Shown here piece after piece: positions 17 through 44,103 of a DNA stretch of 64,000 nt (the stretch's first letter is position 1; each line of letters opens with the position of its first letter). The stretch comes from Escherichia phage LHE83. The notes under the pieces are model-generated. The model did no database searches. It worked only from the letters and a program-made list of their open reading frames with translations, and was not told the origin of the DNA. The position numbers and the translations under genes are program-made. The DNA lies in the sequence record OQ561750. The stretch is one strand, 5' to 3'.

Positions 17-613
17 ATGAAAACGTATAAAGAATTTATCGCCGAAGCTTCTGTAGGAAAGGTCCAAGGCATTAATAAAGATGAGTGGACTTACAAAGGA
101 AACGGCGTTGACAACCCAGGAAACGGTTTTGACGCTAAAACAGCTCCTATTGAACGGTATTTAGCTACAAAGGCTTCTGATTTTAAAGCTTTCGCCTGGG
201 AAGGACTTCGCTGGCGTAACGACCTAAATATTGAAGCTGATGGACTTAAATTTGCCCATATCCAAGATGTTGTTGCTAGTAACTTGGACGCAGCTTTTGT
301 TAAAGCTGACGGTGACCTTCGTCGCTGGAATTTAAAACTGTTCTCTAAACAGAAAGGTCCTGTATTTGTACCTAAAGCAGGTAAATGGACTATTGATAAT
401 AAATTGGCTAAGGCGGTCAACTTCGCCGGTCTTGAATTTGCCAAGCACAAATCAGCATGGAAAGGTCTCGATGCAATGACTTTCCGTAAAGAATTTGCCG
501 ATGTTATGGCTAAAGGCGGCTTTAAGGCAGAAATAGATACCTCTAAAGGTACGTTTAAAGACGCTAATATTCAGTACGCTTACGCCGTTGCTAATGCTGC
601 CCGTGGTAATTAA
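17..613 (+). CDS. ipIII: internal head protein IPIII-like
   Basis: ORF track; N-terminal MKTYKEFIAEA capsid-targeting motif shared by T4 internal proteins; length and sequence resemble T4 IPIII (memory). Confidence 0.8.
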   Translation: MKTYKEFIAEASVGKVQGINKDEWTYKGNGVDNPGNGFDAKTAPIERYLATKASDFKAFAWEGLRWRNDLNIEADGLKFAHIQDVVASNLDAAFVKADGDLRRWNLKLFSKQKGPVFVPKAGKWTIDNKLAKAVNFAGLEFAKHKSAWKGLDAMTFRKEFADVMAKGGFKAEIDTSKGTFKDANIQYAYAVANAARGN

Positions 614-654: not shown

Positions 655-957
655 ATGAAAACCTATCAAGAATTTATCACCGAAGCGCGAGTAAGTGCGG
701 GTAAATTAGAAGCCGCCGTAAATAAAAAGGCCCATTCATTTCATGATTTGCCCGATAAAGACCGTAAGAAACTTGTAAGCCTTTATATTGACAAAGAGCG
801 TATTCTCGCTCTCCCAGGCGCTAATGAAGGTAAACAGGCCAAGCCTTTGAATTCTGTCGAAAAGAAAATTGATAACTTTGCTTCTAAGTTCGGTATGTCT
901 ATGGATGACCTTCAGCAAGCGGCTACCGAAGCAGCTAAAGCAATTAAAGGTAAATAA
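655..957 (+). CDS. ipII: internal head protein IPII-like
   Basis: ORF track; MKTYQEFITEA capsid-targeting N-terminus; about 100 aa. Confidence 0.75.
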   Translation: MKTYQEFITEARVSAGKLEAAVNKKAHSFHDLPDKDRKKLVSLYIDKERILALPGANEGKQAKPLNSVEKKIDNFASKFGMSMDDLQQAATEAAKAIKGK

Positions 958-1468: not shown

Positions 1469-1768
1469 ATGAAAACTTATCAAGAATTTATCACAGAAGC
1501 CAAAGCTCCTAAAGCATTTCAAATTGGAGTTCAAGGCAATTTAGACCAAGAATATGTTGATGCTATTGTAGCAAGCCTCGGTAAACAGGGCGTACAAGTC
1601 GATTTTGTTGATTTTACCAAAGGTAATACTTTTAATATTGTTACATCTAAAGGTTCTTTAGCTAAAGTTAAAAAGGCCTTTGGCGTAGCACAAGCATATG
1701 AAATCGACCACTCCGAATTAGAAAATAAAGGTCGCCAGAACACAATTAGAGGTTCTGGTTCTTTCTAA
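1469..1768 (+). CDS. ipI: internal protein IPI-like (T4 IPI inhibits GmrSD-type restriction)
   Basis: MKTYQEFITEA capsid-targeting motif; 99 aa; CTATCAAC/AAGGA cassette upstream. Confidence 0.7.
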   Translation: MKTYQEFITEAKAPKAFQIGVQGNLDQEYVDAIVASLGKQGVQVDFVDFTKGNTFNIVTSKGSLAKVKKAFGVAQAYEIDHSELENKGRQNTIRGSGSF

Positions 1769-2457: not shown

Positions 2458-2750
2458 TGACTGATGAAGAACTTTTTGAGTTCTGTTATTTCTCACGTAA
2501 GGTTCGAAGAGAGGACCTTACTGCAAATTTCGAGTATGCTTATTTCTATCCATTAGAATATGTATTCATGACAGGGCCCTTTAAGGGCTCTCGTTTTAGA
2601 TGTCATGCCCCAAGCATCCGATTAATGAAACAGGTTCCTTACTTCACCCTCGAGTTCATCTCAGGGCCTTGTAAGGGTATTATAACTCGTAGTCTCTTGA
2701 CATATGACCAAGAGATTCATATGATTTCTGACTGGAAAAAATATGTCTAA
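2454..2750 (+). CDS. hypothetical protein
   Basis: ATGA overlap with upstream stop; track start 2406 lies inside the upstream gene. Confidence 0.45.
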   Translation: MMTDEELFEFCYFSRKVRREDLTANFEYAYFYPLEYVFMTGPFKGSRFRCHAPSIRLMKQVPYFTLEFISGPCKGIITRSLLTYDQEIHMISDWKKYV

Positions 2751-2961
2751 ATTGTCAATTGAAGGCTCTGATGAAGCTCTGAAGATGTTTGTTGATTGGT
2801 TCCACGAACAGGGCGAACAAGGCTTTTTGGAATGTTGGAATGGTGGACAATGGAACGGTAAAGAAACCGTTTATCCGAGCACATATATCTCTGTTCGTGG
2901 CGGACCCAACGGCCTTCGTTTAGTGGAATACGATATCGCAACTGGTGAGGAAGTAAAATGA
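2743..2961 (+). CDS. hypothetical protein
   Basis: ORF track; ATG overlapping the preceding stop. Confidence 0.5.
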   Translation: MSKLSIEGSDEALKMFVDWFHEQGEQGFLECWNGGQWNGKETVYPSTYISVRGGPNGLRLVEYDIATGEEVK

Positions 2962-3236
2962 TTGAAGATATCAAGGGTTACAAACCACATACCGACGATA
3001 AAATCGGTAAAGTGAATGCTATTAAAGATGCCGAAATTCGGTTAGGGCTGATGTTTAAAGCTCTAGAAGAAGAACATGTTACCTATTATATGAACTTAGA
3101 TACCGAAGAGGTTTCTGAACAAGAACTAGACCAGGCTCATGAACGCATTACCCAGATTCGTAATGCAATTGACCGTCTTAAAGAAGCTAGTATGTGGGCT
3201 TGTCGCTCTGTGTTCCAACCAGAAGAAAAGTACTAA
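2958..3236 (+). CDS. hypothetical small helical protein (vs-region)
   Basis: ORF track; ATGA overlap with upstream stop. Confidence 0.5.
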   Translation: MIEDIKGYKPHTDDKIGKVNAIKDAEIRLGLMFKALEEEHVTYYMNLDTEEVSEQELDQAHERITQIRNAIDRLKEASMWACRSVFQPEEKY

Positions 3237-3297: not shown

Positions 3298-3756
3298 ATG
3301 TCAGAAATTAATTCAGAAGTATTCATCCGCCGCAATAAATTACGTCGTCAGTTCGAAACCGAATTCCGCGAACTGAATGCGTCCATCAAAAAAGCCGCCA
3401 TTAAGAGCGGAGTCCCAGCCTTCTTTATTAAGTACTCTAATCACTTGTTGGACCGTGCTATCCAACGTGAAATCGACGAAAAATACGTTTTTGCTTTATT
3501 CAAGCAACTCCATAACCATGTTAAAGAAATTCATGAATTTTTAATCCAGGAACCTCTGCCTGATGTAGAAGCCGAAATCATTCCTGGTAAAGTGTATCGC
3601 CCATTGCGTCTCGAAATTACCGATAAAACCTTATGGCTAGGTATGACTGTAGATCGTAAACATCCTGATAAAGGATACTCGTTAAAATGTCGTATGGCAT
3701 TTGTTAACTCTAAACGTTTAGAAGGTAAAACCAGCACGAAAGTAATCTATCTTTAA
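3298..3756 (+). CDS. regB: RegB site-specific endoribonuclease
   Basis: Internal ATG after the promoter cassette; MSEINSEVFIRRNKLRR...LLDRAIQREIDE resembles T4 RegB; track start 3139 runs through the promoter. Confidence 0.85.
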   Translation: MSEINSEVFIRRNKLRRQFETEFRELNASIKKAAIKSGVPAFFIKYSNHLLDRAIQREIDEKYVFALFKQLHNHVKEIHEFLIQEPLPDVEAEIIPGKVYRPLRLEITDKTLWLGMTVDRKHPDKGYSLKCRMAFVNSKRLEGKTSTKVIYL

Positions 3757-3768
3757 TAATGAGGTCTC

Positions 3769-4308
3769 ATGAAAAAAGTATTAGCCACTTTACTATTGAC
3801 AGTTAGTATGTCTGCCCATAGCGTAGAGCCTACTTTCAGTAATGAACAACTCGATAATTTACATTATGCGTATGCTTTCGGTGAACAATACCAAAAGTCG
3901 GGAAAGTTCAAAGAAACCCCTAATCAAAAAGGATTAGGATATATCATGGCCGGATTACTATGGCAGGAATCATCCGCCGGAATTAATCAAGGTTTAAATA
4001 AAGATAAGCACCATGCTTATGGCATGTTCCAAAATTACTTGCCTACGTTAAGAAGTCGTGTTCAACAGGTAGGTTGGAAGATGTCTGACAAAGAAATAAT
4101 TCGTATGGTCCAAAAACGACAGAACAGTGCCTCTTGGGCCTACATTGAACTGTCTTATTGGATTGATGTTCACAAAGGTGACCTGAGAAAAGCGATTGCT
4201 TCTTATAATGCGGGCTGGAACGCCAAAGCAGGCAGTAAATATGCTTCTGAAGTTCTAGAAAAGGCCAATTACCTAAAATCTAAAAAGATGTTTGAGGCGG
4301 TGTATTAA
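3769..4308 (+). CDS. secreted lytic transglycosylase-like protein
   Basis: N-terminal signal peptide; motifs LWQESSAG, AYGMFQ and SYNAGWN resemble the SLT-domain catalytic Glu-Ser and AYNAG motifs. Confidence 0.55.
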   Translation: MKKVLATLLLTVSMSAHSVEPTFSNEQLDNLHYAYAFGEQYQKSGKFKETPNQKGLGYIMAGLLWQESSAGINQGLNKDKHHAYGMFQNYLPTLRSRVQQVGWKMSDKEIIRMVQKRQNSASWAYIELSYWIDVHKGDLRKAIASYNAGWNAKAGSKYASEVLEKANYLKSKKMFEAVY

Positions 4309-4665
4309 ATGATTAAGCAGATGACTATAGCGCTTATGTTGATTGCTCCGGGAGTATTAGCGTCACAAGTTGATGATAGTAATAATTCAATTGTCGAGTA
4401 TGCTACCCGTACAGCAAAAGATTATTGTCATCCGAGTAATACTGAATGCATTATCGAATTCAGTTCAAAAATCACAGCTGCTTTTAAAGATGGCCAGAAC
4501 GACGTAGAGCATCGCCGAATGAAAGAGAAAACTCTTTCTAAAAGATACGAGCAACGTCTAAACGTTACTGAATGTATTCCATCTGATAAAAAGTACAAAG
4601 AAATGTGCGCGTCTATGGTAGACAGACTCGTTGATTCATACAACCGAGGATTAAACTCTAAATGA
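4309..4665 (+). CDS. secreted or periplasmic hypothetical protein
   Basis: ORF track; hydrophobic N-terminus; several Cys. Confidence 0.5.
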   Translation: MIKQMTIALMLIAPGVLASQVDDSNNSIVEYATRTAKDYCHPSNTECIIEFSSKITAAFKDGQNDVEHRRMKEKTLSKRYEQRLNVTECIPSDKKYKEMCASMVDRLVDSYNRGLNSK

Positions 4666-6072: not shown

Positions 6073-6351
6073 ATGGACCTAAATTCAAAGATTTTAATTC
6101 TAGCGTTCGCTGTGGCTATTTCTTATATTGTTCTTTCGCCTATCATGGATGATGTGGCTTACAAAAGAGAGATAGAGGTTGTAGCAGCGACGTATAATGC
6201 TAATAATAAAGAGTGTCCTAATAAAAATGGGATGGATTTAATTAAAGCGCATTATATGCTTTCCATTACCTCGCCTATACAGAGGAATTGGGTTGAATAT
6301 AATTTTAACGACGTGTTCTATTCTTATTGTCGTAAGCTTAAAAAGCTATAA
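6073..6351 (+). CDS. hypothetical membrane protein
   Basis: ORF track; N-terminal transmembrane segment. Confidence 0.5.
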   Translation: MDLNSKILILAFAVAISYIVLSPIMDDVAYKREIEVVAATYNANNKECPNKNGMDLIKAHYMLSITSPIQRNWVEYNFNDVFYSYCRKLKKL

Positions 6352-6354
6352 ATA
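6347..6354 (+). promoter_or_regulatory. late-promoter-like TATAAATA
   Basis: Exact match to the T4 late -10 consensus, about 90 nt upstream of rI. Confidence 0.35.
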
Positions 6355-6443: not shown

Positions 6444-6737
6444 ATGGATATTTTCCGTACAGCGGCTTGTATCCTTATGGCGGGATGTTTAAGCCCTACA
6501 GTTTCACTAGCAAATGACACCAACGATAAATTGATGGATGCATTTGCTAGTAGTGCGATGCCTGTTTATGCGCAAATGAGTAGACCTAGCATAAAGGCCT
6601 CCGAAGACTATTGGGCCTACCTTAATGCTTCTTGGAAGGTATCAAGTTGTCAGACTATAGAAGCGTGCTCAATTGAAGGTCGTGCCATCGGAGAGCGTTA
6701 TGCAAAACTAATGAAGGTGGAAGATGAAGTTCAATGA
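6444..6737 (+). CDS. rI: lysis inhibition regulator rI-like
   Basis: 97 aa; signal-anchor N-terminus; Cys pattern and size as T4 RI; sits between tk and the nrdC-region genes. Confidence 0.6.
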   Translation: MDIFRTAACILMAGCLSPTVSLANDTNDKLMDAFASSAMPVYAQMSRPSIKASEDYWAYLNASWKVSSCQTIEACSIEGRAIGERYAKLMKVEDEVQ

Positions 6738-38247: not shown

Positions 38248-38569
38248 TTTATCTGATTTAGATAATTTCGTTAAAGATACCGAAGAGGGTCCTAGTGACC
38301 CTCGTTATTATGAGAAATCGTTAGATATAATCCGTAAGTCAATGGGGTCTGTTAAGCAGGAAATTATGCTTACTTTACCCGATGGCACTGCTCACATCGT
38401 TTATGTGATGAATATTGTTATTGAGAAAGATGGAAAAGTGTCGGTTGATTTCGGAACACCTTCCGAAGACCGAAAAGAAGAGCTAGCGCTTCATGTAGAA
38501 AAATGTGTTACAATGCAAATACAAGAAGAACTGGATAAAATTAAATCTAAGAGGTGGTGGAAGTGGTAG
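38240..38569 (+). CDS. 40: gp40-like head vertex assembly chaperone (by position)
   Basis: ORF track; syntenic between uvsX and 41; size as T4 gp40. Confidence 0.55.
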   Translation: MTDLSDLDNFVKDTEEGPSDPRYYEKSLDIIRKSMGSVKQEIMLTLPDGTAHIVYVMNIVIEKDGKVSVDFGTPSEDRKEELALHVEKCVTMQIQEELDKIKSKRWWKW

Positions 38570-39993
38570 AAACTATTTTGGCTCAACTGCTAGGCAATAG
38601 TGATTATTTCACTAAGGTCTGGCCTTATATGAATGATTCTTATTTTGACCAGGGTCCTGCAAAGACCCTTTTCAAAGAAATTAAAAAACACGTCAATGAA
38701 TATAATGCAGTGCCTTCTAAGAACGCGCTGAGCATTGCATTAGATAACAGCACGCTTTCAGAAGTTGAACACCAAGGCGCTAAAGAGCTTTTAAGTTCAC
38801 TGAATGCCGGACCTGAAGACCAAGAATGGTTGGTTAAAGAGACGGAGAAATACGTTCAGAAAGCAGCGATGTATAATGCAACTTCAAAAATCATTGAAAT
38901 CCAAACTAATGCAGACCTTCCGGTTGAGCAACAAAATAGAAAACTTCCAGGTATTGGTGCTATTCCAGATATCATGCGTGATGCATTATCGATTTGTTTC
39001 GATTCTGAATTAGGTCATGACTGGATGGATGACTATGAAGAACGTTTCAAAAGTTATTCTGATAAAGCACGTAAGGTTCCGTTCCGTCTTAATATTCTGA
39101 ATAAGATTACCAAAGGTGGTGCCGAGTTTGGTACTGAAAACGTATTGTTGGCAGGAACAAACGTAGGTAAGTCTCTTGGTCTTTGTTCATTGGCTGCTGA
39201 TTATCTTCAATCTGGTTACGATGTTCTTTATATCTCCATGGAGATGGCAGAGGAAGTATGTGCTAAGCGTATCGATGCCAACCTTCTGGATGTGTCACTG
39301 GATGATATCGATGACGGCCATGTCTCTTGGCCTGAATATAAAGCTAAGATGGATAAATGGCGTTCAACTGCTACTTTAGGTCGTTTAAAGATTAAACAGT
39401 ACCCTACCGGTGGCGCTAATGCCGATACATTCCGTGCATTATTAAACGAATACAAACTCAAACAAAACTTTGTTCCACAGGTCGTTATCGTCGACTACTT
39501 GGCCATCTGTGCATCATCTCGTACGAAAGTTTTCTCTGAAAACAGTTACGGATTGATTAAGATGGTAGCCGAAGAACTACGTGGACTTGCAGTAGAAAAG
39601 AAATTATTGTTGTGGACTGCAGCCCAGACTACTCGTGGTGCGAACGTTGCAGCCGAAATCGATATGGCTGATATTGCTGAATCCTTTGGTATTGCACATA
39701 CTGCAGACTTCATGTTAGGTGTGGTCGAGACAGAAGAGTTTGCTCAGATGGGTATGCAGATGGTTAAGCAGCTTAAATCTCGTTATGGTGATAAGAGCTA
39801 CTACAACAAATTTAAGATTGGTGTTAAGAAAGGAAATCAACGTTGGTACGAAGTTGAAGACGATTCCAACCCAGGCCAGGTGAACACCGTTCGTGAGGCT
39901 ACAGGTGAGATGAATCGTCAAGCCGAGGTCAATCGACAGACGCTTGTTAATAGAAGTGATTTGGACGATTTAGCAGCATCTATCAAATTTTAA
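38563..39993 (+). CDS. 41: replicative DNA helicase gp41 (DnaB-like)
   Basis: GTG start chosen by alignment to the T4 gp41 N-terminus (MVE.IL); AAGAGGTGG Shine-Dalgarno; Walker A GTNVGKS; C-terminus as T4. Confidence 0.9.
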   Translation: MVETILAQLLGNSDYFTKVWPYMNDSYFDQGPAKTLFKEIKKHVNEYNAVPSKNALSIALDNSTLSEVEHQGAKELLSSLNAGPEDQEWLVKETEKYVQKAAMYNATSKIIEIQTNADLPVEQQNRKLPGIGAIPDIMRDALSICFDSELGHDWMDDYEERFKSYSDKARKVPFRLNILNKITKGGAEFGTENVLLAGTNVGKSLGLCSLAADYLQSGYDVLYISMEMAEEVCAKRIDANLLDVSLDDIDDGHVSWPEYKAKMDKWRSTATLGRLKIKQYPTGGANADTFRALLNEYKLKQNFVPQVVIVDYLAICASSRTKVFSENSYGLIKMVAEELRGLAVEKKLLLWTAAQTTRGANVAAEIDMADIAESFGIAHTADFMLGVVETEEFAQMGMQMVKQLKSRYGDKSYYNKFKIGVKKGNQRWYEVEDDSNPGQVNTVREATGEMNRQAEVNRQTLVNRSDLDDLAASIKF

Positions 39994-40657: not shown

Positions 40658-40951
40658 ATGAAAAAGTTATTAATCGCAGCAATTCTTGCCGTAGCATCAT
40701 GTGGTACAGCTCCAGTTACTGCTGGACTTGATAAAGACCTTTGTGAATGGTCTATGACTGCAGACCAAGAATCGGTCGAACATCAGATTTATGCTGATAT
40801 CATGAACATCACTAAACGTGACCGCCCTGATATGGTTAAAGAAGTGTCAGACCAATTGGCTTCAAGCGGCGTTATGCAGTATAACTATGTTCTGTATTGT
40901 GACGCTAATTTCGATAACAAAAACATCGTTAAAGAGGTGACAGGTGAATAA
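40658..40951 (+). CDS. sp: Spackle (periplasmic superinfection-exclusion protein)
   Basis: 97 aa; signal peptide; DKDLCEWSMTADQ...GVMQYNYVLYCD near-identical to T4 Sp from memory. Confidence 0.75.
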   Translation: MKKLLIAAILAVASCGTAPVTAGLDKDLCEWSMTADQESVEHQIYADIMNITKRDRPDMVKEVSDQLASSGVMQYNYVLYCDANFDNKNIVKEVTGE

Positions 40952-41384
40952 GATTAACAGAAATTTGGTTATCAAAAAACTTCGTTGTAAAAATCCAAAT
41001 GCACAAGCATACAGGATGTTTTGGAGCGACGACCACCAATACCTAGGTTATTTTCTTGTTGATAGCGATGATCGAATTACAATGGCTCATAAACTTCTTA
41101 ACAGAGAATTAAACCATTGGCAAGAACTTATTGCGGTGAGGTCTAAATTATTTTCATGCAATACAATGCACCAATTGGTTTATTTTTTCGCCGATGGTAT
41201 TCCTGACAAGGTTGAGTTTGATGGGTTTGAATTTAAAGATATCCACCCGGACAACGAATTGAACGACCGCGTTAATATAGATATCCCTAGCAAGTATATC
41301 AAAAACAGTCTGTTGAAAATTCTGGAAGCTCCGGTTTATTCAATTGACGACCAGATTTTTAATGCCTTTATGAATCGAGGTTAA
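40944..41384 (+). CDS. hypothetical protein
   Basis: ORF track (GTG start); start uncertain. Confidence 0.45.
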   Translation: MNKINRNLVIKKLRCKNPNAQAYRMFWSDDHQYLGYFLVDSDDRITMAHKLLNRELNHWQELIAVRSKLFSCNTMHQLVYFFADGIPDKVEFDGFEFKDIHPDNELNDRVNIDIPSKYIKNSLLKILEAPVYSIDDQIFNAFMNRG

Positions 41385-41385
41385 T

Positions 41386-41607
41386 ATGTTTGTTTTAACT
41401 CAATTCTCTAAAGCGGTATATGGTTACTCCTGCCAGTGGGAAGTCTTTATCGATTCTCCTTCACCTAAGTACGGTGTTTTTGGACGAGTAACTACTCAAG
41501 CTTATGTTGCACGGCCTACTAAGCGCCAGCTTCGTAAACTTAAAAAGGCCCATCGCCAACTGATTGAAAGAAGGGAACAATATGAGTGCAATGTGTACGG
41601 GCTCTAA
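41386..41607 (+). CDS. hypothetical basic protein
   Basis: ORF track. Confidence 0.5.
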   Translation: MFVLTQFSKAVYGYSCQWEVFIDSPSPKYGVFGRVTTQAYVARPTKRQLRKLKKAHRQLIERREQYECNVYGL

Positions 41608-41773
41608 GATTTCTGTATTCGAGTTATTCGAAGAATATGAAATCATATCAAAAGACCAAGAAGCTATCCATATTATTGCTGATGATGGTGTGACTTGGAT
41701 TATTCCACTTTACCACGAAGATACCTATGAAGTCACTGATGCAAATGGTGATAAAGCTATTTTCGTAATATAA
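41582..41773 (+). CDS. hypothetical protein
   Basis: Internal ATG after AGGGAA Shine-Dalgarno of track ORF 41564. Confidence 0.4.
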   Translation: MSAMCTGSKISVFELFEEYEIISKDQEAIHIIADDGVTWIIPLYHEDTYEVTDANGDKAIFVI

Positions 41774-41776
41774 ATA
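41769..41776 (+). promoter_or_regulatory. late promoter TATAAATA
   Basis: Exact T4 late consensus, 14 nt upstream of AGGAG and a small ORF. Confidence 0.4.
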
Positions 41777-41789
41777 AGGCCAGGAGCCT

Positions 41790-41951
41790 ATGAAATCTTT
41801 TAAAGAAGTTATGAACGAAGATATGGTCGCAGGCGATGCAGGTGGTAATCCTACTGCTATTGCCTCCGGAACTACCTCAGGCGCAGTCGTCAATAAAGGG
41901 CCTGAACAAATCCCATCTAAAAAGCGTAAAGAAAAATCCGAAAACGAATGA
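41790..41951 (+). CDS. hypothetical small Gly/Ala-rich protein (53 aa)
   Basis: Read by eye; AGGAG Shine-Dalgarno; below the track length cutoff. Confidence 0.4.
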   Translation: MKSFKEVMNEDMVAGDAGGNPTAIASGTTSGAVVNKGPEQIPSKKRKEKSENE

Positions 41952-41989
41952 TATAATGGCTCTATTAATTTAGAGCCTAAGGAAAAATA

Positions 41990-43018
41990 ATGTCATATGT
42001 CGATAGAGAATTTGCTGTACGTGCCTTGAATTACCAACCTAAATTCAGACAAGTAACTGGTAGTGATTTTAAATTAAACTGTCGTTGTCGTGTATGTGGC
42101 GACTCCCAAAAAGATGAGAACAAAGCTCGTTTTTGGGCCTATCCGGCTAATGACGGCTCCGTAATGCTGCACTGTTTTAACTGTGACTATTCAGCAGGAA
42201 TTAAGAAGTATCTATACGAATATGAGCCTGATTTATATCGCGAATATATTCTTGAGAAACATAAAGAGCAATCGTTCGGGAGACAAGCGGCACCTAAGGT
42301 GGAGATATCAGAAAAGATTAAAGCCAAGATGCCTGTCATCGAAAAGCTTAATTTCTGTGAACGTCTGGATAGAATGCCAAACGACCATCCTATTATCAAA
42401 TATGTAACACTACGTTGCATTCCTGAAAACAAATGGAATCGGCTGTGGTTTACTAAAGAATGGCCTGCATTAGTTAACTCTGTCAATCCAGGGACCTATT
42501 CTAAAGAAATGCCTGAGCCTCGTTTGGTTATTCCTATTTTCAATAAGGATAAACAAATAGAAAGTTTTCAAGGTCGAGCCTTGCGTAAAGATGCTCCACA
42601 AAAATATATTACAATAAAGGCTCATGACCAAGCTACAAAAATATATGGAATGGATACAGTTGACGAACGTCAGTTGGTGTGGGTAATGGAAGGTCCTATT
42701 GATTCATTATTCGTACCGAATGCAATAGCAATTACTGGCGGGTCGTTGGACTTGGCTATGGTTCCATGTAAAGAAACTCGTGCCTGGGTAATGGACAATG
42801 AACCCCGCCATCCCGACACAATTAAGCGTATGCAACGATTAGTTGATGCTGGCGAAAGGGTTCTATTCTGGGACAAGGCTCCATGGCCTTCTAAAGATAT
42901 AAATGATATGATTATGAAAGATAAAGCTGATATAAATGATGTACTGGCATATATGAAAGCTAATATAGCCCAAGGTCTAATGGCTAAAATGAGACTTTCA
43001 AAATATTCTAAAATTTAG
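41990..43018 (+). CDS. 61: DNA primase gp61
   Basis: 342 aa; Zn-ribbon CRCRVCGDS...CFNCDY; TOPRIM; C-terminal QGLMAKMRLSKYSKI as T4 gp61. Confidence 0.9.
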   Translation: MSYVDREFAVRALNYQPKFRQVTGSDFKLNCRCRVCGDSQKDENKARFWAYPANDGSVMLHCFNCDYSAGIKKYLYEYEPDLYREYILEKHKEQSFGRQAAPKVEISEKIKAKMPVIEKLNFCERLDRMPNDHPIIKYVTLRCIPENKWNRLWFTKEWPALVNSVNPGTYSKEMPEPRLVIPIFNKDKQIESFQGRALRKDAPQKYITIKAHDQATKIYGMDTVDERQLVWVMEGPIDSLFVPNAIAITGGSLDLAMVPCKETRAWVMDNEPRHPDTIKRMQRLVDAGERVLFWDKAPWPSKDINDMIMKDKADINDVLAYMKANIAQGLMAKMRLSKYSKI

Positions 43019-43215
43019 GCAGGAACTCCGCTAAAGAATCCAATTATGCTTAATACGTGTTCCATTGTAACCGCTGGTAAAATTATCCCTTGGCTAGCGG
43101 CTACAGGGACTACTAGAAGATTCCAAAGGAATACGTCTAGCGCAAGAAAACCTAACATCATTTTCTTGTCTTTCTTTTCGGCCAATTTCCAGATTTGGTA
43201 AAAAATACTGCCCAT
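43015..43215 (-). CDS. hypothetical small membrane protein (antisense to the early-gene direction)
   Basis: ATG preceded by AGGAGG with a 5-nt spacer on the minus strand; lies in a 288-bp + strand coding gap between 61 and 56; hydrophobic. Confidence 0.4.
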   Translation of the reverse strand: MGSIFYQIWKLAEKKDKKMMLGFLALDVFLWNLLVVPVAASQGIILPAVTMEHVLSIIGFFSGVPA

Positions 43216-43306
43216 GTTATCCTCCTGTTAAATTAATATTTATTCGCTTTAATCTAACAGTTTATAATTATCTAACTTACTAATGAATTGAAAAGGAAAA
43301 AATATA

Positions 43307-43830: not shown

Positions 43831-43838
43831 TATAAATA
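43831..43838 (+). promoter_or_regulatory. late promoter TATAAATA upstream of soc
   Basis: Exact late consensus about 30 nt upstream of the soc ATG. Confidence 0.55.
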
Positions 43839-43869: not shown

Positions 43870-44103
43870 ATGGGTGGTTTCGTTAATATTAAAACCTTTA
43901 CGCATCCGGCTGGTGAAGGTAAAGAAGTTAAAGGTGTTGAAGTATCTGTCCCGTTTGAAATCTATTCAAACGAGCATCGTATTGCGAATGCACACTATCA
44001 GACATTTCCTTCTGAAAAGGCGGCATACACTACTGTAGTAACTGATGCAGCCGATTGGCGAACTAAGAACGCGGCGATGTTTACGCCTACCCCAGTAGTT
44101 TAA
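43870..44103 (+). CDS. soc: small outer capsid protein Soc
   Basis: 77 aa; VNIKTF...AHYQTFPSEKAAY as T4 Soc; late promoter upstream. Confidence 0.85.
   Translation: MGGFVNIKTFTHPAGEGKEVKGVEVSVPFEIYSNEHRIANAHYQTFPSEKAAYTTVVTDAADWRTKNAAMFTPTPVV

Follow-up and report, generated by a model that had tools for sequence, protein, structure and literature searches.

Gene 61.1 of Escherichia phage LHE83 carries a late promoter motif, an internal-protein-like leader, and a copy of the gp23 N-terminal segment, suggesting a small head peptide

Bacteriophage T4 is the best studied of the tailed phages, and gene 61.1 is still one of the handful of open reading frames (ORFs) conserved across T4-like phages that lack an assigned function (PMC1524935). 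The late promoters of T4 consist of an 8-bp TATAAATA box at positions -13 to -6, without a -35 element, and position -13 is the least conserved of the late consensus (PMC1524935; PMC2988020). Among the proteins of the T4 head, residues 1 to 10 of internal protein IPIII form a capsid targeting sequence (CTS), in which residues 4 and 7 serve targeting and residues 8 and 10 serve processing by the prohead protease gp21, as set out in a review of Black's work (PMC9026906). The approximately 25 N-terminal residues of the mature capsid protein gp23*, called the N-fist, are disordered inside the prohead and move to the outer surface on expansion; they contact four subunits and help form the Soc site (PMC9958956). 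Here we describe the 61.1 gene of Escherichia phage LHE83, which lies in a stretch of 64,000 nucleotides (nt) of sequence record OQ561750, referred to below as the window and read as one strand, 5' to 3'.

The gene encodes 53 amino acids (aa) that divide into a leader resembling the CTS of internal proteins, a copy of the N-fist, and a Lys/Arg cluster. Recurring late promoters, the internal-protein leader, and the in-register combination of a gp21-type site with N-fist homology together make a peptide that enters the prohead and is cleaved there the most economical reading. On balance we give even chances to 61.1 being a late-made, prohead-targeted, gp21-processed small head peptide built from these three modules, and we hold head targeting and gp21 processing, judged on their own, to be a serious possibility that falls just short of an even one. 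What is new here is the modular anatomy of 61.1 and a testable function for a long-standing conserved ORF; the gene itself was already known.

An initial annotation of the window had picked out this ORF, below the length cutoff of its ORF list, as a late-promoter-driven Gly/Ala-rich protein among early genes. The quoted translation, MKSFKEVMNEDMVAGDAGGNPTAIASGTTSGAVVNKGPEQIPSKKRKEKSENE, is confirmed exactly by the sequence and its ORF list (+ strand, ATG at 41790, 53 codons, TGA at 41949-41951), and the description as Gly/Ala-rich is fair (11 of 53 residues). The ORF is not novel. Over the surrounding 3.1 kb the window shares 98% identity with Escherichia phages vB_EcoM-E33 and MX01, and approximately 94% with JS98 (genus Dhakavirus, T4-like); the ORF is annotated as "gp61.1 hypothetical protein" in MX01, and 61.1 is annotated in JS98 and T4 as well. 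A profile search matched phrog_1823 over residues 1 to 53 (E 2.5e-31) and phrog_2086 through its C-terminal part, and the T4 protein, of 54 aa, reads MKTFKEFIKEDMVAGDSGGNPENISIGTTSGAVVNKGPEQIPKKKKEESKEKEE. On these comparisons it is practically certain that T4 gene 61.1, a previously annotated and uncharacterised gene, and the 53-codon ORF are orthologs. Its setting among early genes was described correctly: it lies between genes 41 and 61, beside dmd, spackle, and a 61.2-like ORF, in the order 41 (helicase), an unnamed ORF, dmd, spackle, the 61.2-like ORF, two small ORFs (one of them DUF7279), 61.1, 61 (primase), a minus-strand small ORF, 56, and soc.

Conservation in relatives, proposed as a check in the initial annotation, was then assessed. 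A tblastn search matched 61.1 in 1,413 of 50,697 phage records, from phages of Escherichia, Klebsiella, Shigella, Aeromonas, Acinetobacter, Vibrio, and others. Against close relatives the ratio of nonsynonymous to synonymous substitution rates (dN/dS) was 0 to 0.2, with differences mostly synonymous. On this comparative evidence 61.1 is a real gene, conserved and under purifying selection. An exhaustive HMMER search yielded only 25 matches at E <= 1e-3 among 1.84 billion cluster representatives, so the family is small and confined to phages; a 554-aa protein with seven matched stretches in that search (P0142) was set aside as an unrelated repeat protein. Scans of Pfam and NCBIfam returned no match for the short form of 61.1 found in LHE83, and in the literature we found no paper tying 61.1 to a function, a CTS, or a late promoter.

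The core of the protein is homologous to the gp23 N-fist. BLASTP against T4 gp23 gave an ungapped alignment of 61.1 residues 2 to 38 with gp23 residues 57 to 93 (17 identities in 37 positions, E 7e-9), in which Glu10 of 61.1 falls on Glu65, the gp23 maturation site (Glu65↓Ala66), as it likewise does with MX01 gp23; the 61.1 site is in register with the gp23 site LTE↓AEIGGD. Alignments of the short and long family forms alike matched gp23 in hhalign (96.9%, E 2e-10), the match being confined to gp23 residues ~56 to 100, and a sequence search of the PDB returned gp23 chains only, over the same local segment. In all, residues 2 to 43 of 61.1 are homologous to gp23 residues ~56 to 98, a stretch that holds the maturation cleavage site and the N-fist. 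The gp23-like module by itself is predicted to be disordered. Because of this homology some orthologs are labelled "major capsid (domain-containing) protein," which, judged from the sequences, is over-transfer. The tail of 61.1 contains the cluster KKRKEK, so the basic tail noted in the initial annotation is present, but the predicted mature peptide as a whole is approximately net neutral. At least four Lys/Arg residues lie within 14 residues after GP in 172 of 183 family members, and the Lys/Arg cluster of the long forms aligns with MVRRAI of gp23.

The residues preceding the core resemble the starts of internal proteins and terminate in hydrophobic-x-Glu, a gp21-type motif. T4 IPII and IPIII start with MKTYQEFIAE↓A, IPI with MKTFKEF...ITE↓A, and T4 gp61.1 with MKTFKEFIKE↓D, and the first 22 nt of T4 61.1 and ipI are identical (22/22). 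When 363 first-ATG ORFs of at least 40 aa, drawn from the window and from T4 loci, were examined, the leader pattern matched internal proteins and 61.1 only. T4 gp61.1 keeps F4, F7, I8, and E10; the LHE83 copy has F4, V7, M8, and E10. Site statistics were compiled from 202 unique family sequences, 201 of them scorable. Glu immediately precedes the MVAGD core in 196 of these 201, P3 is Leu, Ile, Met, or Val in 192 of the 196 that carry this Glu, and the five exceptions have L-x-E one to three residues upstream; Glu10 is invariant in our alignment A1. Internal-protein genes of LHE83 itself occupy the start of the window (+ strand): 17..613 encodes an IPIII-like protein beginning MKTYKEFIAE↓A, and 655..957 and 1469..1768 encode two proteins beginning MKTYQEFITE↓A, one IPII-like and the other a third protein of 99 aa. 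The features of the 61.1 locus are collected in Table 1.

Table 1. Positions of 61.1, its modules, its predicted expression signals, and neighboring genes in the window
Feature	Position	Strand	Remarks
61.1 ortholog	41790..41951	+	53 codons + TGA; phrog_1823, synteny, dN/dS
Leader MKSFKEVMNE	41790..41819	+	Like internal-protein CTS; predicted gp21 site after Glu10 (41817-41819)
Core DMVAGDAGGNPTAIASGTTSGAVVNKGP	41820..41903	+	Homologous to N-fist of mature gp23 (T4 gp23 residues 66-93)
Tail EQIPSKKRKEKSENE with Lys/Arg cluster	41904..41948	+	Lys/Arg count in family
Late promoter octamer TATAAATA	41769..41776	+	Exact T4-type match
Predicted late transcription start	41782	+	6 nt after octamer; 8-nt leader AGGAGCCU
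Shine-Dalgarno AGGAG	41782..41786	+	3 nt before ATG
Upstream small ORF	41582..41773 (63 aa, ATG); 41564..41773 (69 aa, TTG)	+	Last codons and stop carry octamer
Primase gene 61	41990..43018	+	Conserved downstream neighbor; on any late transcript from 41782
Helicase gene 41	38554..39993		Upstream of 61.1

The initial annotation had placed an exact TATAAATA 14 nt ahead of an AGGAG and the ATG. All three elements are there, but the spacing was wrong: the gap between octamer and AGGAG is 5 nt (aggcc), or 13 nt measured between their first nucleotides, and the first nucleotide of the octamer is 21 nt upstream of the 61.1 ATG. The octamer also takes in the TAA stop (41771-41773) that ends the upstream ORF. 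Since TATAAATA occupies -13 to -6 (PMC1524935), the predicted transcription start falls on the first A of AGGAG, and RNA folding predicts an unstructured 5' region for the late transcript. The raw count is no argument against chance, as the exact octamer occurs three times in 64 kb against 6.4 expected. The relaxed form WATAAATA is depleted in the window (6 copies against 15.7 +/- 4.0 expected, with 100 of 100 shuffles giving at least 6), which fits a purging of stray late promoters from the early region. Each of the three exact copies lies on the coding strand; the one at 43831 stands ahead of soc. The third, at 6347..6354 (+), overlaps the stop of an ORF at 6073..6351 and lies ~90 nt upstream of another at 6444..6737.

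Comparison among relatives is more telling than counts within the window. In a set of 64 loci encoding 61.1 relatives, which present 42 distinct 45-nt upstream contexts, the exact octamer stands 21 to 35 nt upstream of the 61.1 start in 13 of the 42, at offsets of -21, -24, -26, -29, -32, and -35. These 13 contexts collapse to ~7 arrangements with different flanks, some with a different upstream gene (loci L026-31, L032-34, L038-40, L046/50, L048, L054, and L083/84); on the same strand of the flanking sequence, the octamer has a background frequency of 8 per 213.8 kb, or ~0.0014 per 45-nt window. Other lineages have AATAAATA or (C/G)ATAAATA upstream of 61.1, and three contexts have CTAAATA, which Aeromonas phage Aeh1 is reported to have as its late consensus (PMC1524935). 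That the octamer is kept while flanks and upstream gene vary is the decisive evidence against chance, and we consider it probable, from this recurrence, that a gp55/gp33/gp45-dependent late promoter of 61.1 is functional in LHE83. The late-promoter claim thus draws good support from the recurrence in ~7 contexts, but it does not extend to the whole family, T4 being without the motif.

The initial annotation likened 61.1 to soc, as a small ORF behind a late motif in an early region. The likeness holds for the motif but not for a hairpin sequestering the ribosome-binding site (RBS): folding of the 61.1 read-through RNA gave no significant RBS-masking hairpin, only a 4-bp stem (z-scores of -0.7 and +0.8), whereas in the soc leader of the window, folded as a control, the AUG is paired (z-score of -1.6). 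The RBS-sequestration model of the soc/e/49 type is therefore unsupported by folding for 61.1. With no such hairpin, early read-through RNA probably also yields 61.1 protein, and the promoter probably adds late synthesis to early expression rather than restricting 61.1 to late times. Both the leader, which is of internal-protein type, and the homology to gp23 lend weight to the notion that a late protein with a virion-related role sits within an early block; late expression of 61.1 in LHE83 is something we still infer. The soc ortholog itself lies at 43870..44103 (+; PF16855, E 9e-20), with TATAAATA at 43831-43838; read-through RNA of soc is predicted to pair the AUG region with nucleotides immediately beyond the promoter box, a structure that a transcript beginning at ~43844 loses. 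The layout is the classical T4 soc arrangement.

In the role that we propose, the late promoter would add 61.1 synthesis during prohead assembly, atop early and middle read-through. The 10-residue leader would carry 61.1 into the scaffolding core of the assembling prohead, where gp21 would cut after Glu10 and leave the new N-terminal peptide DMVAGDAGGNPTAIASGTTSGAVVNK (T4 equivalent, DMVAGDSGGNPENISIGTTSGAVVNK). The 43-residue product would stay within the head or on it, as an internal peptide associated with DNA or docked at the places where N-terminal segments of gp23 bind. Promoter activity, prohead targeting, cleavage, and presence in the virion are what we infer from the sequence, and the mass-spectrometry supplements on T4 heads contain no entry for 61.1.

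A number of observations weigh against this role. The neighboring genes are counter-defence genes, which would suit a different one. Of the leaders examined, that of LHE83 has diverged furthest (V7 and M8; 4 to 5 of 10 residues identical to internal-protein leaders), its site has Met at P3 and Asp at P1' where the textbook motif is Leu or Ile-x-Glu followed by Ala or Ser, and the leader of the short forms may derive from an internal "...KEIFEALPLFE" stretch of the long forms rather than being a true CTS. T4 late promoters are A/T-rich just downstream of the box (PMC2988020), and the 5 nt after the LHE83 box, AGGCC, are G+C-rich; other 61.1 lineages have various nucleotides at this place, among them aaaca and ctaat. 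At just 8 nt, the predicted leader RNA is short. In T4 the interval between genes 41 and 61 has no WATAAATA anywhere, and in T4-type genomes the 61.2 stop abuts the 61.1 RBS; late expression is consequently not required across the family. The T4 61.1 transcript is classed as early and the protein was undetected in the whole-cell proteome (PMC9697503 Table S2). Because T4 lacks the motif, its RNA data are uninformative on the LHE83 promoter, and ipII and ipIII, which encode bona fide head proteins, are likewise "early" by transcript and "late" by protein (PMC9697503 Table S2), so that an early transcript class is compatible with a head role. The reviews of T4 heads consulted here make no mention of an unassigned N-fist-like component. 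Finally, the gp23 N-fist is nearly invariant among paired genomes, and 61.1 of phage TG1 has a clear indel that is absent from TG1 gp23, contrary to a prediction of co-variation. On the strength of this indel we rejected a tight, co-evolving mimicry of each phage's own gp23; the module is better seen as an old partial paralog of the gp23 segment.

The chief rival to the head-peptide reading is a counter-defence decoy, which we judge unlikely and yet worth keeping in view. Here 61.1 would be a soluble mimic of the gp23 N-terminal segment, made alongside gp23 and not a head component. It would titrate or block whatever in the host recognises newly made capsid protein, be it an abortive-infection sensor or an interaction with a protease or chaperone. 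Counter-defence genes are numerous in the block that holds 61.1 (Dmd, Spackle, and the 61.2/AdfA-like ORF), late co-expression with gp23 would be suitable, and capsid proteins are known triggers of bacterial immunity, as with Gol/Lit on gp23; in the long forms the gp23 similarity extends to the first residues of the conserved VRRAIPNL block. In a mosaic region, however, guilt by association counts for little, no PADLOC or anti-defence family evidence was obtained, and a decoy leaves both the internal-protein-type leader and the near-universal protease-type site unexplained. In the short form, moreover, the similarity runs up to the most conserved block of gp23, which is equated with Gol, and ends there, and LHE83 61.1 thus lacks the only known sensed peptide. 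A Lit/Gol decoy was rejected on this ground.

A different objection concerns the promoter motif. TATAAATA could be incidental, the product of a stop codon and an A/T-rich junction from the insertion of two small ORFs, with 61.1 an early gene, or the promoter could serve primase gene 61; we find this quite unlikely. An upstream TAA stop inside the octamer, a G+C-rich spacer after it, an octamer count in the window that is not enriched, and the lack of the motif in T4, where 61.1 is classed as early, are all as an incidental origin would have them. Against it stand an exact 8-mer that persists in spite of differing flanks and even different upstream genes, a region otherwise purged of the motif, and the fact that the other intact + strand copy precedes soc. 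As for the primase, gene 61 always follows 61.1, so comparison cannot separate a promoter for 61.1 from one for 61.

There is also a slim chance that 61.1 acts as a maturation modulator, competing as a substrate of gp21, or regulating gp21 or the folding and assembly of gp23, by presenting the P9-P'30 sequence of the gp23 cleavage junction without becoming a lasting virion component. The in-register alignment across the gp23 cleavage site and the conserved protease-type site are equally at home in this explanation, and a review describes the activation mechanism of the protease as unresolved (PMC9026906). As a competitor, though, 61.1 would be far scarcer than gp23, which is made in huge amounts, and most predictions of a modulator are shared with the head-peptide reading.

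The wider family places the short forms in context. Most 61.1 relatives are a long form of 120 to 180 aa (phrog_2086), encoded at the corresponding locus ahead of the primase gene, with a conserved N-domain (...DAVYAYKFIRLMQKPFTEWKAYEAKIIDEKG.VLKRP...) followed by ...EQKEIFEALPLFE↓DMVAGDSGG.... Short forms retain the C-terminal third of the long form, and by sequence T4 and Dhakavirus 61.1 look like shortened long forms. That the short ORF is a decaying, functionless remnant of a long ancestral 61.1 of 120 to 180 aa is hardly credible, for although the family is mostly long and the short forms keep only that C-terminal third, they occur across several genera with dN/dS well below 1, retain their start, Shine-Dalgarno sequence, and tail, and have a distinct leader common to internal proteins.

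In a structural model of the long form, the N-domain (~105 residues) is helical with moderate confidence (predicted local distance difference test score [pLDDT] of 63.5) and the gp23-like module is disordered. Foldseek found no PDB fold match to this model at E <= 0.001, and a Pfam scan of four long forms gave nothing credible. In BFVD the model aligned over 130 to 154 columns, at 22 to 37% identity, to larger uncharacterised phage proteins of 387 to 913 aa (A0A411BBR2, 672 aa; A0A1B1IT15, 913 aa; A0A7S5R3P1, 387 aa; and A0A6J7WVK5, 396 aa), and these model alignments raise the possibility that other phages have the 61.1 prodomain and module fused to cargo. An indexed protein search had only members of 150 to 180 aa among the matches listed. 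The N-domain is found in 617 phage records, out to Pelagibacter phage HTVC008M and Sinorhizobium phage phiN3, and gave no match when compared with the gp23 propeptide; the C-terminal tails of the HTVC008M and phiN3 proteins are too divergent for comparison with gp23. Pattern scans of marine contigs recovered no 61.1-type module, and distant marine gp23s have a different, hypervariable N-terminus.

Two groups of distant homologs deserve separate mention. In HTVC008M (locus L171), gp141 (2492..3097, 201 aa) has the N-domain without the MVAGD module, and two genes downstream gp143 (3468..4547, 359 aa) starts MKTFTDF...EDIANVAGDGAVSMPP...KKKK, that is, with a CTS-like leader and a compressed VAGD/basic module. 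In gut-metagenome contigs from IMG/VR (loci L063-L067, match at ~2498-2680), the 61.1 homolog has in-frame TAG codons, and at one of them the sister contig L067 has a codon for Gln, a sign that amber may be read as Gln in a T4-like gut phage.

Other features near 61.1 were recorded alongside. The interval 40944..41773 (+) is a mosaic hot spot. It includes the 61.2-like ORF (146 aa), which shares only its C-terminus with T4 61.2 and has a weak, below-threshold match over its last 15 residues to the family of AdfA (anti-DarT factor), and, after that ORF, two small ORFs without T4 counterparts, 41386..41607 (DUF7279) and 41582..41773. The latter has no Pfam match and a C-terminus homologous to one at loci L010-14 (...TDANGDKAIFV). 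An inverted repeat, GGCTCTA-ttaatt-TAGAGCC at 41958..41977 (+), lies between the 61.1 stop and the Shine-Dalgarno sequence of gene 61; it is not terminator-like, since no T-run follows it, and it might influence 61 translation or RNA stability. An Rfam scan of 41300-42200 found no RNA family. On the minus strand, a hydrophobic ORF of 66 aa at 43015..43215 (MX01 ORF29) has AATAAATA, the -13A variant, at 43244..43237, ending 21 nt before its ATG, and could be the gene for a late, antisense-oriented small membrane protein between 61 and 56.

If the head-peptide reading is correct, the T4-type head components and prohead-protease substrates gain a widely conserved member, and the N-fist gains a paralog with which to probe capsid expansion, Soc-site formation, and contacts at the vertex and portal. 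It would also mean that the CTS is used outside the variable internal-protein loci, which is relevant to T4 heads engineered for protein delivery. A more far-reaching version, which we put forward as a long shot, takes the whole 61.1 family to be a copy of the N-fist that stands on its own, is processed by a protease, and serves as an unrecognised near-universal component of T4-like head maturation, being delivered to the prohead by a CTS leader in short forms and by the ~105-residue helical prodomain in long forms. Under this version 61.1 could take up N-fist docking sites that gp23 cannot fill beside gp24 vertices or the portal, or alternatively it could be a DNA-associated internal peptide injected with the genome. 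Should the decoy explanation be the true one, a decoy that mimics the capsid would likewise be of current interest.

Among described systems the closest is T4 gp61.1 (UniProt P39228; phrog_1823; long form, phrog_2086), which is 76 to 79% identical to the LHE83 copy over residues 1 to 42 (78.6% by tblastn), lies at the same locus directly upstream of primase gene 61, and has the same three-part layout. LHE83 differs in that 61.1 has its own TATAAATA and that two small ORFs stand between 61.2 and 61.1; T4 has neither. T4 IPI, IPII, IPIII, and Alt, with their CTS (Mullaney and Black, 1996, via PMC9026906), resemble 61.1 in an approximately 10-residue leader, MK(T/S)(Y/F)x(E)(F/V)(I/M)xE, that ends in a gp21-type site, and the T4 internal-protein genes, like 61.1, are in a block on the early strand. 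Compared with the internal proteins, 61.1 is much smaller, its mature part consists of a gp23-like segment where theirs is independent folded cargo, its LHE83 leader has diverged at positions 3, 7, 8, and 9, and its packaging and cleavage are only predicted. With the N-terminal region of gp23, 61.1 shares ungapped homology over about 37 to 43 residues, including Gly, Pro, Asp, and Ile positions invariant in both families; unlike gp23, 61.1 with its 53 aa has no HK97-fold body (P and A domains, E-loop) and no Pfam Gp23 match. The lysozyme gene e of T4 has late promoters. In T4, soc and e each have TATAAATA on the early-gene strand just before a small ORF, as LHE83 61.1 does, and the proximal TATAAATA of gene e also starts at -21, with a 13-nt spacer containing the Shine-Dalgarno sequence, which is the geometry of LHE83 61.1.

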